Virus record (IMG/VR): IMGVR_UViG_3300024999_000044
Coordinates: 1 to 64,000 of that record
Origin: a virus
Strand: one strand, 5' to 3'
Length of the DNA: 64,000 nt
The notes below the pieces were generated by a model. It searched no databases and was not told where the DNA came from. It saw only the letters and a list, made by a program, of their open reading frames with translations. Shown in pieces: positions 59,305 through 63,935 of this stretch. Every line of letters starts with the position of its first letter. Positions within the stretch are counted from its first letter, which is position 1. The translations under genes and the position numbers were made by a program.

Positions 59305-61047
59305 GTGGAATTACTTGTGGTAGCGAGATCATCTGAAGATAGGCATCATGTAATCCTTAGATGGGGAAAGCATTATGGGGTAGTAGAAAAAGGAATGAAA
59401 CCATCTCAGGTAAAATGGGGTAAAAAGGATATACTGGATAGGTCTCTTACCGGAAAGAACTTTGAAGAGGTAGAACCCCCAGTTGTATTCCGACCAGTGG
59501 TTAAAAAATCATTGAGCTCGGGATTAACTTTGTATTTAGACGTGCGCAAATCTCACCAACTCAATTTTGGTCACCTAGTTAAACGAGCGGTTCAGGTTAA
59601 AGGTAAGAATGGTAAACAATTTACCCGCATGCAGTGGGTAAACCCCGGACAGGCCAGTACTGGCCATGGTGTGAGAAGAATTAACAATTCTAAGGACTGG
59701 CTAAATGCTGTGGGTGATGGAGTTATGAAACACCCCATGCACAAACAAGCTATGGAAGATCAGGGAGTTGACATGGATAAGCATCATATTTATGGTGAGC
59801 ATCCCGCATTTTTTGTACCTGAGACCGCTGAATCAAGGAAAGGTAAAACTGGAAGAGATTTCATCCCCCACAAGGACAGTGAATTTAGTAAGAGATACAA
59901 TGAGAACCAGGAATCTATCAGTAGTGAGACAAAATCAGATGTAGATAAAGGTATAATACGTACAGAAGTATCTGAGTTACTGAGAGACTACAAAGCAGGT
60001 AAATCTCTTGCCCCTGTTTTTGATTCTATGGAGTCAATGTTCTTAAAAGGGACCACTCGTCAGAAATACCTTAGTTTGAGAGAAGGCATGAGTAAACACT
60101 GGAAAACCTTACACCCCCAAATTGAGGAATCTATATCTTCTAGTAATAGTTCTGAGTATGCAAAAAAGATTCAGCTATCAACCTTAGACCGTATATCCAA
60201 AATGACAGATTCAGGTAAGGATGGTGTTAATAAAGACCTTGCTGTGATGGCATCTCATCCCGCTGTTGCTAAGTACGCGGTGGATAAACTTTTAGGCAGG
60301 GAAAGAGCTAATGTTCTCAGAGCAAATATGAGGGATGGAAATCTAACCATCAATACTAGTCAAAAGCATCTTGACAGTATACTGAAAGATGGTTACGTAG
60401 CAAATACCTCAGAAGATTATGTAAGGTCTAGGGGTACCAAAAGGGACATCCGTGAATATAATAAAATAGCAGATAGCAATGTGGATATGGATGCTAAACT
60501 AGAGATGATACAAGACATCATTGATAGTGATCCTAGCGAAGAGCGAAATAGCCCTTCAAACATTATGTGGCGTAACATATCAGACAGAGCCGAAGCTGAA
60601 TATTTGTGTATGGGATTAGATATAGGAGATAATATAAAGCCTAATTACCTGGCTTTTAATCCCGATGGCAGTTCTCTAGGGGCCTGTACATCTTACGGAG
60701 ATGGAACCTCCATCAAACTAAACTCTTCGATATTGAAAGACTGTACGGGTAATATGTCTGACACTTTCTATAAAACCCGGCCAATAGCTAAAATACATGA
60801 TATGGATCACTTAAAGGACATATACATGCTGCGCATGATGCATGATGCCCAAGGTGGTGGAGATATTTTTAAGGACATCCCCGAATGGGCTAATGGTGAT
60901 CACATGTGGCCTGAAGATGTACCAGTTGAGTTGCACTACCACAAACCACGAATAGACCCTGAGCTTATTAGTGTCAATGGCAACAGACCAGATAGTTATG
61001 AGGACTACGAGGAAGAGGATGAAGGCAAATATGATAATTGGGGGTAG
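59305..61047 (+). CDS. large hypothetical protein; it shares a 62-nt identical repeat and an N-terminal module with the next large gene
   Basis: GTG start after GGGGGTG; contains LVKRAVQVKGKNGKQFTRMQWV. Confidence 0.5.
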   Translation: MELLVVARSSEDRHHVILRWGKHYGVVEKGMKPSQVKWGKKDILDRSLTGKNFEEVEPPVVFRPVVKKSLSSGLTLYLDVRKSHQLNFGHLVKRAVQVKGKNGKQFTRMQWVNPGQASTGHGVRRINNSKDWLNAVGDGVMKHPMHKQAMEDQGVDMDKHHIYGEHPAFFVPETAESRKGKTGRDFIPHKDSEFSKRYNENQESISSETKSDVDKGIIRTEVSELLRDYKAGKSLAPVFDSMESMFLKGTTRQKYLSLREGMSKHWKTLHPQIEESISSSNSSEYAKKIQLSTLDRISKMTDSGKDGVNKDLAVMASHPAVAKYAVDKLLGRERANVLRANMRDGNLTINTSQKHLDSILKDGYVANTSEDYVRSRGTKRDIREYNKIADSNVDMDAKLEMIQDIIDSDPSEERNSPSNIMWRNISDRAEAEYLCMGLDIGDNIKPNYLAFNPDGSSLGACTSYGDGTSIKLNSSILKDCTGNMSDTFYKTRPIAKIHDMDHLKDIYMLRMMHDAQGGGDIFKDIPEWANGDHMWPEDVPVELHYHKPRIDPELISVNGNRPDSYEDYEEEDEGKYDNWG

Positions 61048-61313: not shown

Positions 61314-63935
61314 ATGGAACTTTTAATAGATTTAATAAAAGCTGGAAAAGCACACCTGCCAGAGGGTGCAGAGCGTTGTGCCTACAAAGTTCCCAACGAA
61401 TATGGTGTGATTTACATACCCATCAACAGATTGAAGCAGATCTATCAGACTGATAAGGCCACCAACCAGAACAAGGTGAAATCTCTAGTGAATAAGATGA
61501 AATCACATGCCACCATTGACCCAGTTGAGATAGGCTATAATTATGATATTCAGAACGGACATCATAGATACGTAGCTAGTGATGAACTGGGGTACACACA
61601 TGTGCCTTGTGTTGTGGTTGGAACAGATGATGCTAAAATAAGAAAAGCTAAAGAGATGTACCGTTCAGTGTGGAAAAGTGATTCGGTCAGCATACAAACC
61701 ATGCTAAAGCAAAATTTGCACAGCGAAGACGATGCTATACAGGACTACAGAAAATTAATAATTAATCTGACTGATCCCAAAATACGTCCAGTCATTGAAG
61801 AGATACTAAAGGATGAAGAGAACCACCACCATAACTTAGAGCAAGTGCTCTTATATGTTGAAGGGGACAAAGAAGCTTTATCAGAGAGCAAATTAAAGAA
61901 AAGTGAATTACTGTCCTTGGTGCTAGATTTAAGCAAGGCACATATGCTCCACAAGGATAAGCTGGTTAAACGAGCGGTTCAGGTTAAAGGTAAGAATGGT
62001 AAACAATTTACCCGCATGCAGTGGGTAGATCCTAAAACTGGCCAACCTGCCTCTAAAGGGCACAAAGTTGAAGAGGACACGCAGCCTAGGCACCGTGCAG
62101 TGGAACAAACTCAAACTAATAAAGAGATTGATTGGGATGATGACTCCATATGGGGTGGGGATGAGGACAATGAGGAGGTAAGAGATAGAGATGAGGAGGA
62201 AGACGAGGATACCGGAGAAGAGCCTGTAAAAAGTAAAGATAGGCAAGAACCTGAGGAGGATGATGCTGAAGATGAGGATGAGTTCCCATCTGTAGAGGAA
62301 CTGGTGCGCAGGAAAAAGGCTAAACAAAATCCTAAGGAAGCTAAGGTTAAAACTAATACTAACAATAGCAATAAAGGCGGTCAAACCACCTTTGTATCTG
62401 ATGTTGATCATTTCGAGAATGTCATAAAGAAGAAATACACTCATGATCACATTATGGACCAAGCTGATAAACAAGGTATCACATGGCAGAGATTGGACCA
62501 ATATGGGGAAATGTTCTCTCCGCCTATGAATTGGATGAGAGCTGCAAGTGCCATAAAAAACCTCATACGTAATGGTGGTGTCTTTGAAATAGAAGACAAT
62601 GCCAAAGATACAGATAAGGCCATGCAAGAGAAAAGTAAAAGCACCGTGGAGAAACACTTCTTGGCACTGCTGAATAAGCACGAAGGAAATAAGCAGGAGT
62701 TTATGGAGTGGGCTCGTAATAATGATTACGGTTGGAAAGAGAAAGACGATCCAGTAATGAATTGGATGTATTTTAAAAAGCACATTATGACTTTGTTATC
62801 TCAAGGCAAAATGGTAGGTGGGGTAAGGACCCAACAGAAGGATTTGATGTCTAAAACCAATGCTATAGTTACCCCTGACATAAAAGAGCAAGTCAAGCTA
62901 CTGGGACAAAATTACGATAGAAATGATATCATGTCTAGGGCTGAAGCATATGGGATAAATTGGACAAAAGTAGATAAAAAGGGAAATGACCTCCCCCCAG
63001 CTATGGTATGGATGAGATGCTCCTCTGAAATACAGCTATGGCTGGCTCAAGGTCACGAATTTCTTATGGATGGGAAAAATCCTAACAAGGGAGTGACATC
63101 TGCTTCAGCAAAAATAGAAGATGTTAAGATAGGAAAGCATCAATCCTATGCTCTTGACTTCGCAGGGAGAAACAGCAAAAATTATGAAGAAAAGGCTCGC
63201 AAATGGGCTATAAAATCTATCATGATAGACAACCCTAAAATGACTGATCTAGATGCTGATACCTTCTATAAGAAATTTGTTTCCAATGCTTCCGAGGCAC
63301 GTATTATGATACACATAGACCCACTTGAGAAATTACCTGGGGGCATAACCACACTGGACCAATTTAGCTCAGATGGGCACCTACGCAACCCCTTTCAGAT
63401 AGGCAATATAGACGCAGAGGCACAAGAGATTGCAGAACGCGAGTTATATGGGGAAGGGTTTGATGAGGCCCCACCAAGGGAACGTCCTATTTATGGTAGT
63501 ATGGATTTATTTAACCAGGGGTTGGACTCTTCAGGATATGGTAGCATAGCTCTGGTGCTAAAGAATGATGTTAAGAGTAGATCCTCTGTTACTATGGGAG
63601 ATTCAAATAGCTTGCCATGGGAGACTAATGGTAAATTAACCAGACATGCCACTTCTTCTCACCAAGCCCTAATTGACAGATGGACTAGTAAATGGGCAAA
63701 TCCTAAGAAGGCAGATGCTGTACGTAAGAGAGCTATGGAATCTATTGCCAGTGGCACTAGGAATAATGACCCAGGTTTTTTTGAAACACAAATACTAGGT
63801 GGGGTGGATTTTAAAAGGGACGTGGATCATGTGCTGGTTCCACAGGATTGGAGTACTAATAAGGACCACAGGGATAAGCATGAAAAGGTTAAGGCTTTTG
63901 CTAAACTTCACGGATTACAGGTTAAGTATGAATAA
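61314..63935 (+). CDS. large protein with an N-terminal ParB/Srx-like nuclease domain and an acidic linker
   Basis: YKVPNEYGVIYIPINRLKQIY…DPVEIGYNYDIQNGHHRYVASDELGYTHVPCVVVG. It then carries LVKRAVQVKGKNGKQFTRMQWV (a DNA-identical repeat) and a poly-D/E stretch. Confidence 0.55.
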   Translation: MELLIDLIKAGKAHLPEGAERCAYKVPNEYGVIYIPINRLKQIYQTDKATNQNKVKSLVNKMKSHATIDPVEIGYNYDIQNGHHRYVASDELGYTHVPCVVVGTDDAKIRKAKEMYRSVWKSDSVSIQTMLKQNLHSEDDAIQDYRKLIINLTDPKIRPVIEEILKDEENHHHNLEQVLLYVEGDKEALSESKLKKSELLSLVLDLSKAHMLHKDKLVKRAVQVKGKNGKQFTRMQWVDPKTGQPASKGHKVEEDTQPRHRAVEQTQTNKEIDWDDDSIWGGDEDNEEVRDRDEEEDEDTGEEPVKSKDRQEPEEDDAEDEDEFPSVEELVRRKKAKQNPKEAKVKTNTNNSNKGGQTTFVSDVDHFENVIKKKYTHDHIMDQADKQGITWQRLDQYGEMFSPPMNWMRAASAIKNLIRNGGVFEIEDNAKDTDKAMQEKSKSTVEKHFLALLNKHEGNKQEFMEWARNNDYGWKEKDDPVMNWMYFKKHIMTLLSQGKMVGGVRTQQKDLMSKTNAIVTPDIKEQVKLLGQNYDRNDIMSRAEAYGINWTKVDKKGNDLPPAMVWMRCSSEIQLWLAQGHEFLMDGKNPNKGVTSASAKIEDVKIGKHQSYALDFAGRNSKNYEEKARKWAIKSIMIDNPKMTDLDADTFYKKFVSNASEARIMIHIDPLEKLPGGITTLDQFSSDGHLRNPFQIGNIDAEAQEIAERELYGEGFDEAPPRERPIYGSMDLFNQGLDSSGYGSIALVLKNDVKSRSSVTMGDSNSLPWETNGKLTRHATSSHQALIDRWTSKWANPKKADAVRKRAMESIASGTRNNDPGFFETQILGGVDFKRDVDHVLVPQDWSTNKDHRDKHEKVKAFAKLHGLQVKYE

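Follow-up and report, generated by a model that had tools for sequence, protein, structure and literature searches.

A short tract homogenised by gene conversion encodes part of a modular tag on candidate cargo proteins of a SPO1-like phage

Why would two large phage proteins, encoded almost side by side, share a stretch of DNA that is identical letter for letter? The question is raised by the window studied here, the 64,000 nucleotides at positions 1 to 64,000 of IMG/VR virus record IMGVR_UViG_3300024999_000044, in which three co-oriented, closely packed genes, named gpA, gpB and gpC, lie directly 3' of the large terminase gene that anchors the cluster (Table 1). gpA and gpC contain the same in-frame repeat of 63 nucleotides. 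We find that this tract has been homogenised by gene conversion, and that it falls within a 45-residue tag which stands in front of several kinds of protein body. The reading that we favour, with somewhat more confidence than doubt, is that gpA and gpC are cargo proteins of the polyvalent type, which the homogenised tag addresses to the phage head, where they would be processed before being ejected with the DNA.

Protein searches place the window among the SPO1-like myoviruses (Herelleviridae), and its backbone genes follow the SPO1 order, with the terminase, a ParB-like gene, a sigma factor, PhoH and ribonucleotide reductase in succession. At the DNA level, a megablast search of the 57-64 kb region against 50,697 phage records gave zero matches, and there is therefore no close cultured relative. 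No close relative of the window was found in IMG/VR either, where the top match to the gpA body is 33% identical. gpC is ~43% identical to "ParB-like" proteins of the Bacillus phages CP-51, JL and Shanette and of Exiguobacterium phage vB_EalM-132 (EalM-132). An identical gpA is recorded on 6 contigs of ~142 kb. The nearest relative (loci L005-L008) encodes a gpA that is 69% identical, keeps the order terminase-gpA-gpB-gpC and has a repeat pair of its own; it is represented by four separate assembly deposits, two from ENA and two from JGI, at least one of them a groundwater metagenome, although the underlying samples may overlap.

Homogenisation of the shared tract

The sequence-only reading had described a 62-nucleotide segment encoding one peptide in both genes. 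The segment is real and the peptide is indeed the same, but the repeat measures 63 nucleotides and the second interval had been placed one position off. On the + strand, it is an exact direct repeat present in two copies only, 2387 bp (~2.4 kb) apart, with 0/100 in shuffles. Tolerating 3 mismatches extends the repeat to 71 nucleotides, and the flanks, compared in register, show 26-40% identity, which is the random level. Each copy is read in frame as VKRAVQVKGKNGKQFTRMQWV, and as the Leu codons just before it differ synonymously (CTA vs CTG), the identical stretch of peptide reaches 22 residues.

All copies of the hairpin, the half of the tag that contains the repeat, were compared codon by codon in every fetched locus. 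In the window, the gpA and gpC copies agree at 65/66 nucleotides and use identical codons at 21/22 same-residue positions; the two copies of L005-L008 agree at 62/66 nucleotides and 18/20 codons. Orthologous copies of the window and L005 are far less alike, with 60-62/75 nucleotides (over a span containing the tract) and 11-13 of 22-23 codons in common. The third copy of L005, located 9 kb downstream, matches the other two at 44-45/66 nucleotides and 8 of 15-16 codons. Within-genome pairs of canonical copies were also available for ~20 further lineages, each having two or three copies, including JL, EalM-132, L009, L010 and many IMG/VR contigs. These pairs share 42-55/66 nucleotides and about half of their codons, and pairs that involve a degenerate copy of the type found in JL gp89 share 30-34/66 nucleotides. 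Homogenisation is thus lacking in these lineages, and in other phages the peptide is kept at a codon identity of ~45-60%.

Because paralogues are more alike than orthologues in each of the two sister lineages, conversion postdates the split between the window and L005 in both. Inside the tract, the window and L005 differ at ~10 positions, nearly all synonymous and each present in both paralogues of its genome, and the tract boundaries are equal in the two phages. We conclude that the tract is homogenised by recurrent, local, short-tract intragenomic gene conversion between gpA and gpC, in agreement with the recent conversion proposed from the sequence alone, and the codon comparison indicates that the nearest relative has homogenised the same tract independently. 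Since synonymous sites vary freely between lineages, the target of selection is the peptide and not the DNA. The pattern is that of concerted evolution by gene conversion in general, in which within-genome paralogues are closer than orthologues and a short tract has diverged flanks; what differs here is that the tract is unusually short, ~60-63 nucleotides, and coincides exactly with a peptide tag placed between unrelated domains. Because the tract corresponds to a conserved tag that joins otherwise unrelated domains, its homology could also drive the in-frame exchange of cassettes.

It is very unlikely that the tract is maintained by a function at the nucleotide level, such as an RNA structure, a protein-binding site on the DNA (a packaging signal, for example) or a programmed recombination site requiring both copies to be identical. 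Such a function would agree with the identical tract boundaries in the window and L005, and in-frame direct repeats spaced as these are could mediate a deletion fusing the N-terminal part of gpA to the gpC body, comparable fused architectures being found elsewhere (P0015-P0018). However, sharp edges are expected anyway, because diverged flanks preclude the extension of a heteroduplex. Moreover, the sequence of the tract differs between lineages, by the mostly synonymous substitutions that separate it from L005 and by the low codon identity of other phages despite the kept peptide, and RNA folding of the repeat is unremarkable (z=0.09).

An assembly artefact was the concern attached to the sequence-only reading. 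As the source of the repeat, an artefact of assembly or sequencing, in which a shared k-mer led to a collapse or a chimeric join, is hardly credible. Exact repeats longer than k can cause misjoins in metagenomic de Bruijn assemblies; the contig name, k141_465162, suggests a k of 141, longer than the repeat. The gpA protein is recorded on 6 contigs of 50-200 kb, the four separately deposited assemblies of the relative show the same gene order with a repeat pair of their own, each gene continues to match its orthologues to the left and to the right of the repeat, and the cultured phages JL and EalM-132 have the tag in the same position; the separate assemblies and the continuation of the genes on either side exclude the artefact. 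Finally, purifying selection on the peptide combined with codon bias, without recombination, is a negligible explanation of the identical codons: the peptide is extremely conserved, with the identical stretch KLVKRAVQVKGKNG in distant phages, but the probability that all 21 codons match by chance for the same peptide under the codon usage of the window is ~1e-8, equally conserved peptides in ~20 other genomes have only about half of their codons in common, and each of the two sister lineages has synonymous states of its own common to both copies.

A homing-endonuclease-like open reading frame (window 56789-57661, + strand; three NUMOD3 motifs, phrog_314) lies upstream, with a 133-residue open reading frame on its side away from the terminase. 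Its 3' end runs 11 nucleotides into the terminase start, and it is probably a mobile insertion specific to the lineage, since L005 has only a spacer of 48 nucleotides there. We considered this nearby gene as a trigger of conversion and rejected it, as L005 lacks it and is homogenised nonetheless.

The 45-residue tag and its carriers

Profile-profile comparison with hhalign reveals a single region shared between the gpA and gpC families, spanning 45 columns (E=2.6e-18). This tag is the site where the invariant residues of both families concentrate, and it is far better conserved than the bodies attached to it. Its first half is a junction element, L-x-[IL]-D-[LIV]-x-K-[A/G/S]; ~8 residues later starts the second half, a basic beta-hairpin, LVKRAVQVKGKNGKxFTRMQWV-x-P, with a net charge of +6 and zero acidic residues. 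In the AlphaFold2 (AF2) model of gpA, the hairpin strands (92-99 and 105-112) follow a predicted disordered junction (66-88) with a predicted local distance difference test score (pLDDT) <50. In that of gpC, the strands (218-225 and 231-238) are isolated between two stretches with pLDDT <50 (197-216 and 242-356).

A word-index homology search with the 63-residue tag region gave no candidate, the query being too short, and an exhaustive profile search was used. A profile of 11 copies, run against 1.84 billion representative proteins, retrieved 246 protein clusters with the tag at E<=1e-3, 93 of them at E<=1e-10. The tag starts within the first 12 residues in 75/165 copies, typically as MELYIDLxKA..., and several proteins have 2-3 copies, one at each cassette start. 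The bodies behind it include those of gpA and gpC, one that is probably GNAT-like and one of ~1000 residues in which an HExxH motif is conserved. Clustering these bodies by single linkage brought no information, as multidomain proteins chain together. The module shuffling that had been suspected along with gene conversion is therefore borne out by one tag standing before at least four body types and at the cassette boundaries of fused proteins.

A Pfam scan of 138 carriers returned DUF3626 in 15, ParB_N in 1, RadC in 1 and little else. The tag has no covering Pfam family, and the PHROG families that match it carry no assigned function. Likewise, neither Pfam nor PHROGs with a named function gave a match to the tag, its breadth, the pairing of SopF-like domains or the protease rule proposed below, and we know of no description of any of them. 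The proteins as such fall into families that PHROGs and annotated phages already contain.

Carriers follow the large terminase gene in the window, L005, L009, L012, JL and EalM-132; the L010 sequence begins inside its gpA homologue, and the upstream gene is outside view. A second subfamily of the tag (…KAMNKAGLVQKEVQVKGKNGQTFTRKQWV) is likewise found directly 3' of a large terminase gene, near a protein with a PARP catalytic domain. In L012, a 927-residue protein with such a domain (10313-13096; E=2e-7) is encoded close to the terminase and a tag carrier, and represents a different type of ADP-ribosyltransferase in the equivalent genomic slot.

JL encodes four clear carriers (gp32, gp68, gp86 and gp87) and the degenerate gp89. 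gp32 adjoins the terminase and is without a Pfam match of its own, its body being like that of gp86 by eye; the assignment of both bodies to GNAT comes from a weak hit (E=0.039), with no sequence match in the PDB. gp68 is a ParB-like protein. Immediately 5' of the genes for the portal, protease, scaffold and major capsid protein come those for gp86 to gp89, and the arrangement in EalM-132 is the same. The gp87-like family of ~1000-residue carriers, located just upstream of the portal in JL and EalM-132, keeps a zincin-type motif, HE(F)xHAxD, in 26/26 members and also holds repeats resembling those of SPO1 gp51. Since L005 and L010 have such a carrier, another is probably encoded by the window phage past coordinate 64000. 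A protein of ~180 residues is encoded directly upstream of the portal in JL (gp89, L011 6175-6717) and EalM-132 (EalM132_00063, L042 6813-7343). It displays a degenerate hairpin, GLVQQVLTYVRDGRTITRKQWV, followed by a very K/E-rich tail, and could be an internal head protein.

Domains of gpA, gpB and gpC

From its N-terminus, gpA comprises a small beta-rich module, the disordered junction, the basic hairpin, a small alpha/beta region, a large body with a SopF-like fold and an acidic tail ending in DNWG (AF2 model, mean pLDDT 80.5). It thus has one recognisable enzyme-like domain only. The sole significant fold match of the body in the PDB is SopF (7dn8_A; E=8.5e-4, prob 1.0, TMt 0.38), an ADP-ribosyltransferase, in line with the PDB title of its complex with NAD. 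The gpA motifs KPxY, YGDG...CT...D and VELHYH correspond to the SopF-like motifs of gpC, and gpA gives no match to the Pfam DUF3626 model. A fold search of BFVD returned uncharacterised relatives only. The acidic tails of the gpA family (window 60970-61047 and homologues) vary in length and retain a conserved Trp (…YDNWG, …DWD…, …NWDD…); the end of JL gp32 is similar.

gpB is a free-standing paralogue of the N-terminal module of gpA. Against a hidden Markov model built from 8 copies of the module, gpA reaches 3e-34 and gpB 8e-36; both belong to the training set, and these scores are therefore not independent. The module is a separate small gene in the window, L005 and L010, and in L009 (P0011) and EalM-132 it forms, by fusion, the N-terminal part of the gpC homologue. 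The small beta module proposed from the sequence alone for all three genes is therefore common to gpA and the short open reading frame, but is absent from gpC of this genome and fused to it only in distant relatives. Stop-codon readthrough from gpB into gpC, which are in frame here with a TAG and 4 codons between them, was considered and rejected. It is unlikely because the in-frame TAG between the genes is not conserved: gpB and gpC are in different frames in L005 and L010, and in the window a strong ribosome-binding site and an ATG follow the stop.

gpC starts with the leader MELLIDLIK↓A (↓, candidate cleavage site, see below), followed by a ParB/sulfiredoxin (Srx)-like domain, helices resembling half a ferritin, the tag, an acidic linker, three gp51-like repeats and a SopF-like domain (AF2 model, mean pLDDT 72). 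The ParB/Srx fold anticipated by the sequence-only reading is confirmed by Pfam ParB_N (26.5 bits vs a cut-off of 26.3, a marginal score), by a sequence match to sulfiredoxin 6ky4 (E=1e-3) and by structural similarity in Foldseek to ParB, Noc and Srx (E from 3e-3 to 2e-2, prob >=0.9); its motif is, however, NGHHR and not DGHHR as first read, and GHHR is invariant in the gpC family. The next segment matches DUF2383 (E=3e-4), Ferritin (2e-3) and Rubrerythrin (1e-2), each under the Pfam cut-off, as well as Dps and bacterioferritin chains (E=0.009-0.02), and corresponds to half a four-helix bundle. It is confined to the window and the L005 lineage and missing from other gpC homologues. The linker behind the tag is as strongly acidic as had been described, and in distant gpC homologues a second ParB-like domain takes its place. 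An antisense open reading frame of 284 residues (window 61929-62783, - strand) overlaps the gpC tag, the acidic linker and the first part of the gp51-like repeats, and is probably a by-product of the local biased composition.

The three helical repeats of gpC appear to be related to the two repeats of SPO1 gp51. In a database of 157 sequences, an iterative search with repeat 3 picks up the two repeats of gp51 in its second round (E=3e-6), and a search started from gp51 leads back to gpC; a BLASTP comparison of gp51 with gpC was not significant. PF26856 (Phage_SPO1_gp51) is a precomputed match for carrier P0117, the C-terminal repeat of which resembles those of gpC, while our Pfam scan reported PF26856 neither for gpC nor for P0117 despite the latter's precomputed match. 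Among the 156 tag-carrier proteins examined, 73 contain gp51-like repeats, with 144 instances in total.

The C-terminal domain of gpC passes the threshold of Pfam DUF3626 (PF12294; 32.8 bits vs a cut-off of 27), a domain of the Salmonella effector SopF (PMC6682159). In Foldseek, it superposes on SopF 7dn8_A (E=1.6e-8, TMt 0.63, 312 columns) and also matches the NAD complex, 7dn9. The motifs RPxY, YG...(C/S)T...D and Y-x-E-A-x-x-x-G align between gpC and SopF, with a sub-significant sequence E of 0.16, and R724, D763-S764 and E824 are invariant in the gpC family. The predicted structures thus point to both gpA and gpC ending in SopF-like folds, the assignment being suggestive only for gpA, whose fold is the more divergent.

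Table 1. Coordinates of the features described in the text (window unless another locus is named; candidate sites in residues).
Feature	Coordinates	Strand	Remarks
Large terminase subunit, gpA-type ATPase	57651-59291	+	Pfam GpA_ATPase E=2.6e-20; phrog_675 E=4.5e-177
gpA, 580 residues	59305-61047	+	GTG start 6 nucleotides after ribosome-binding site GGGGGTG
gpA N-terminal beta-rich module, gpB paralogue	59305-59499	+	residues 1-65; AF2: five strands and one helix, pLDDT ~85
Tag copy 1	59524-59646	+	gpA L74-P114; junction LTLYLDVRK↓S and basic hairpin
Exact 63-nucleotide repeat, copy 1	59578-59640	+	gpA hairpin codons V92-V112
gpB, 82 residues, free-standing N-module	61053-61301	+	ends in junction-like ...INKSMTLYIDN
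gpC, 873 residues	61314-63935	+	ATG 6 nucleotides after ribosome-binding site GGGGGTGAG; phrog_26588 E=9e-173
ParB/sulfiredoxin-like domain	61401-61667	+	gpC residues 30-118; NGHHR...HVPCVVVG
Two-helix ferritin/rubrerythrin-like segment	61674-61883	+	gpC residues 121-190; EENHHH; weak match
Tag copy 2	61911-62033	+	gpC L200-P240; LSLVLDLSK↓A and basic hairpin, between two disordered stretches
Exact 63-nucleotide repeat, copy 2	61965-62027	+	gpC hairpin codons V218-V238
Acidic low-complexity linker	62097-62318	+	gpC residues 262-335; 34 D/E in 74 residues, net charge -24
Three helical repeats, ~60 residues each	62382-63083	+	gpC residues 357-590; resembling the two repeats of SPO1 gp51
SopF-like (DUF3626) ADP-ribosyltransferase-fold domain	63111-63935	+	gpC residues 600-873
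Candidate cleavage sites, disordered or terminal	gpA 66-69, 80-83; gpB 72-75; gpC 7-10, 119-122, 194-197, 206-209		
~1000-residue gp87-like carrier, L011 (JL)	2530-5790		gp87
~1000-residue gp87-like carrier, L042	1933-6503		
~1000-residue gp87-like carrier, L005	from 21146		
~1000-residue gp87-like carrier, L010	from 11363		
Scaffold, SPO1 (L043)	17928-18662		
Scaffold, JL (L011)	9237-10052		
Scaffold, EalM-132 (L042)	9864-10673		

A candidate processing site and a possible route into the head

Many carriers begin with a short leader that ends at the junction Lys, raising the question of whether this Lys marks a site of proteolysis. The motif h-x-K-[S/A] is strongly enriched in the scaffold proteins of SPO1 (11 observed vs 1.1 expected), JL (10 vs 1.0) and EalM-132 (14 vs 1.1), with 0/500 shuffles in each case. 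In the same three phages it occurs 5-6 times per prohead protease and exactly once per major capsid protein, as ALNK↓AL(S/E)AG near residue 24, and it is also found in the leader of the SPO1 portal, MDFFESLSK↓A. Since this distribution over scaffold, protease, capsid and portal is the one expected of a prohead-protease site, h-x-K-[S/A] is probably the prohead-protease cleavage rule of SPO1-like phages. The HK97 protease also cuts after Lys. Within the tag, the junction element fits h-x-K↓[S/A/G], its Lys being invariant and followed by A, G or S in 105/109 copies. Of the eight candidate sites that gpA, gpB and gpC contain, seven are in linkers predicted to be disordered or at protein ends, and the eighth (gpC 109-112) is in a predicted helix. 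Nothing usable was found in the literature on the cleavage specificity of SPO1-type prohead proteases.

SPO1 gp2.12 (L043 643-1266) has the leader MDLHIDLNK↓SGRKS and a second junction, FKEDLEK↓AG, before its ParB domain, and no basic hairpin. The two halves of the tag are therefore separable.

In the head-addressed reading that we favour, the tag would direct the attached enzymes to the assembling head, where the prohead protease would cleave leader and junction at h-x-K↓S/A/G. Cleavage would remove the leaders and release the C-terminal enzymes, now headed by the hairpin, from the N-module and the ParB unit, and the basic hairpin may then hold the cargo on the packaged DNA. The mature, hairpin-headed enzymes would exit with the DNA and ADP-ribosylate host targets at time zero, by analogy with T4 Alt, the gp51-like repeats possibly guiding host targeting. 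That gpA and gpC are packaged or ejected effectors, as the sequence-only reading had also suggested, is plausible because gene position, SopF-like folds, repeats resembling those of SPO1 gp51 and a candidate protease site all fit. Taken as one chain, head entry, cleavage, ejection and host modification stand at an even chance at best. A more far-reaching version, which we put forward tentatively and think doubtful, is that the 45-residue element is a new modular addressing and processing tag of SPO1-like phages that loads interchangeable cassettes (SopF-like ADP-ribosyltransferases, ParB/Srx, GNAT-like, zincin and gp51-like domains) for co-ejection, with the hairpin as the mature N-terminus. 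In that version the tag would serve, in addition, as an in-frame recombination joint for converting, fusing, splitting and exchanging cassettes, because its coding sequence is so conserved.

Several points weigh against the head-addressed reading. MuF, the usual head anchor of polyvalent proteins, is not found in gpA or gpC, and the literature on virion proteomes of CP-51-like phages gave nothing usable. The proposed protease specificity is derived from motif statistics alone, and the cargo proteins as a whole show no enrichment of h-x-K-[S/A]. The match of gpA to SopF is weak in TMt, hhalign aligns gpA with gpC at a probability of 26%, and in the first motif gpA has a Lys at the position of the Arg in gpC and SopF. 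The ParB_N score of gpC is only just above its cut-off, the iterative E-values for gp51 are generous in a local database of that small size, and one sister lineage alone, in addition to the ~20 outgroup lineages, is close enough for the test of concerted evolution. Lastly, the hairpin could bind DNA or a host target instead.

This last point leads to the main rival. Here the hairpin would localise the attached enzymes through contact with nucleic acid or with a conserved host machine (RNA polymerase or the ribosome, for example), and the proteins may act unpackaged in the infected cell. We consider this rival unlikely, although it accommodates much of the evidence: the hairpin is strongly basic without an acidic residue and may loosely resemble KOW-type V-x-V-x-G-K-x-G-K hairpins, the gp51-like repeats derive from a SPO1 host-takeover protein annotated as a transcription regulator, and the junction element without the hairpin in SPO1 gp2.12 separates the two halves. 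By contrast, the carriers are encoded near the terminase and near the genes for portal, protease, scaffold and capsid, not among early host-takeover genes, and many of them have a start leader of ~10 residues ending in K↓A/G/S, like the SPO1 portal. Binding of the packaged DNA would, moreover, agree with packaging.

The reading that gpA and gpC are head-addressed cargo can be set beside known systems. Polyvalent proteins, known from phages and conjugative elements and encoded in phages near portal and terminase genes, have been proposed to be packaged and to reach the host early, and join ADP-ribosyltransferase, ParB-like, zincin peptidase, GNAT and RadC domains by linkers (PMC5512222; Iyer, Burroughs, Anand, de Souza and Aravind 2017). 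gpC resembles them as a large multidomain protein with at least two effector-type domains among its ParB/Srx domain, three gp51-like repeats and SopF-like domain, and so does the setting, a portal-terminase phage with the genes directly downstream of the terminase and sister carriers upstream of the portal, some of which, outside the window, contain HExxH or RadC. However, gpA and gpC are without a Pfam match to MuF, LPD or ART-PolyVal, the common element here is a tag of leader plus hairpin, and the transferase is of the SopF/DUF3626 type. With respect to SopF itself, a type III effector of Salmonella, the likeness consists of the DUF3626 score and superposition of the gpC C-terminal domain and of the gpA body matching SopF only, whereas identity is 13-14% and the setting is a phage and not a secreted bacterial effector.

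In T4, the capsid targeting sequence is an N-terminal leader of ~10 residues that ends at the prohead-protease site (L/I-x-E↓) and is found on unrelated cargo (IPI-III, Alt), including an ADP-ribosyltransferase that is ejected with the DNA (see also PMC9026906). The many carriers here that begin MELYIDLxK↓A likewise appear to have a short leader on unrelated proteins. The two elements have no sequence similarity, however, and the site proposed here, h-x-K↓S/A/G, would be an HK97-type cut after Lys; the tag is also found internally, at cassette boundaries, with a basic hairpin that is predicted to be retained. In SPO1, gp2.12 is 62.6% identical to gpC residues 6-128 and has a comparable leader (MDLHIDLNK↓S) and junction before ParB, and both repeats of gp51 resemble those of gpC. 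SPO1 nevertheless lacks the basic hairpin, the SopF-like domains and gpA, and its gp51, a small early protein whose gene lies in the terminal redundancy, is not part of a large terminase-adjacent protein.

If packaging were not confirmed, we would be left with two multidomain accessory proteins that undergo ordinary gene conversion over a short tract. Should the tag indeed direct cargo to the head, it would be the equivalent, in myoviruses of Gram-positive hosts, of the T4 capsid targeting sequence, a portable 45-residue handle for loading the capsid, and the injected set of effectors would comprise two SopF-like ADP-ribosyltransferases, a ParB/Srx enzyme and gp51-like modules acting before phage gene expression. 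SPO1 is a classical model phage in which the proposed h-x-K↓S/A rule is checkable. As for the evolution of these proteins, the concerted evolution described here illustrates how, in lytic phages, a conserved linker peptide can serve as a hotspot of micro-homology through which domains are shuffled.

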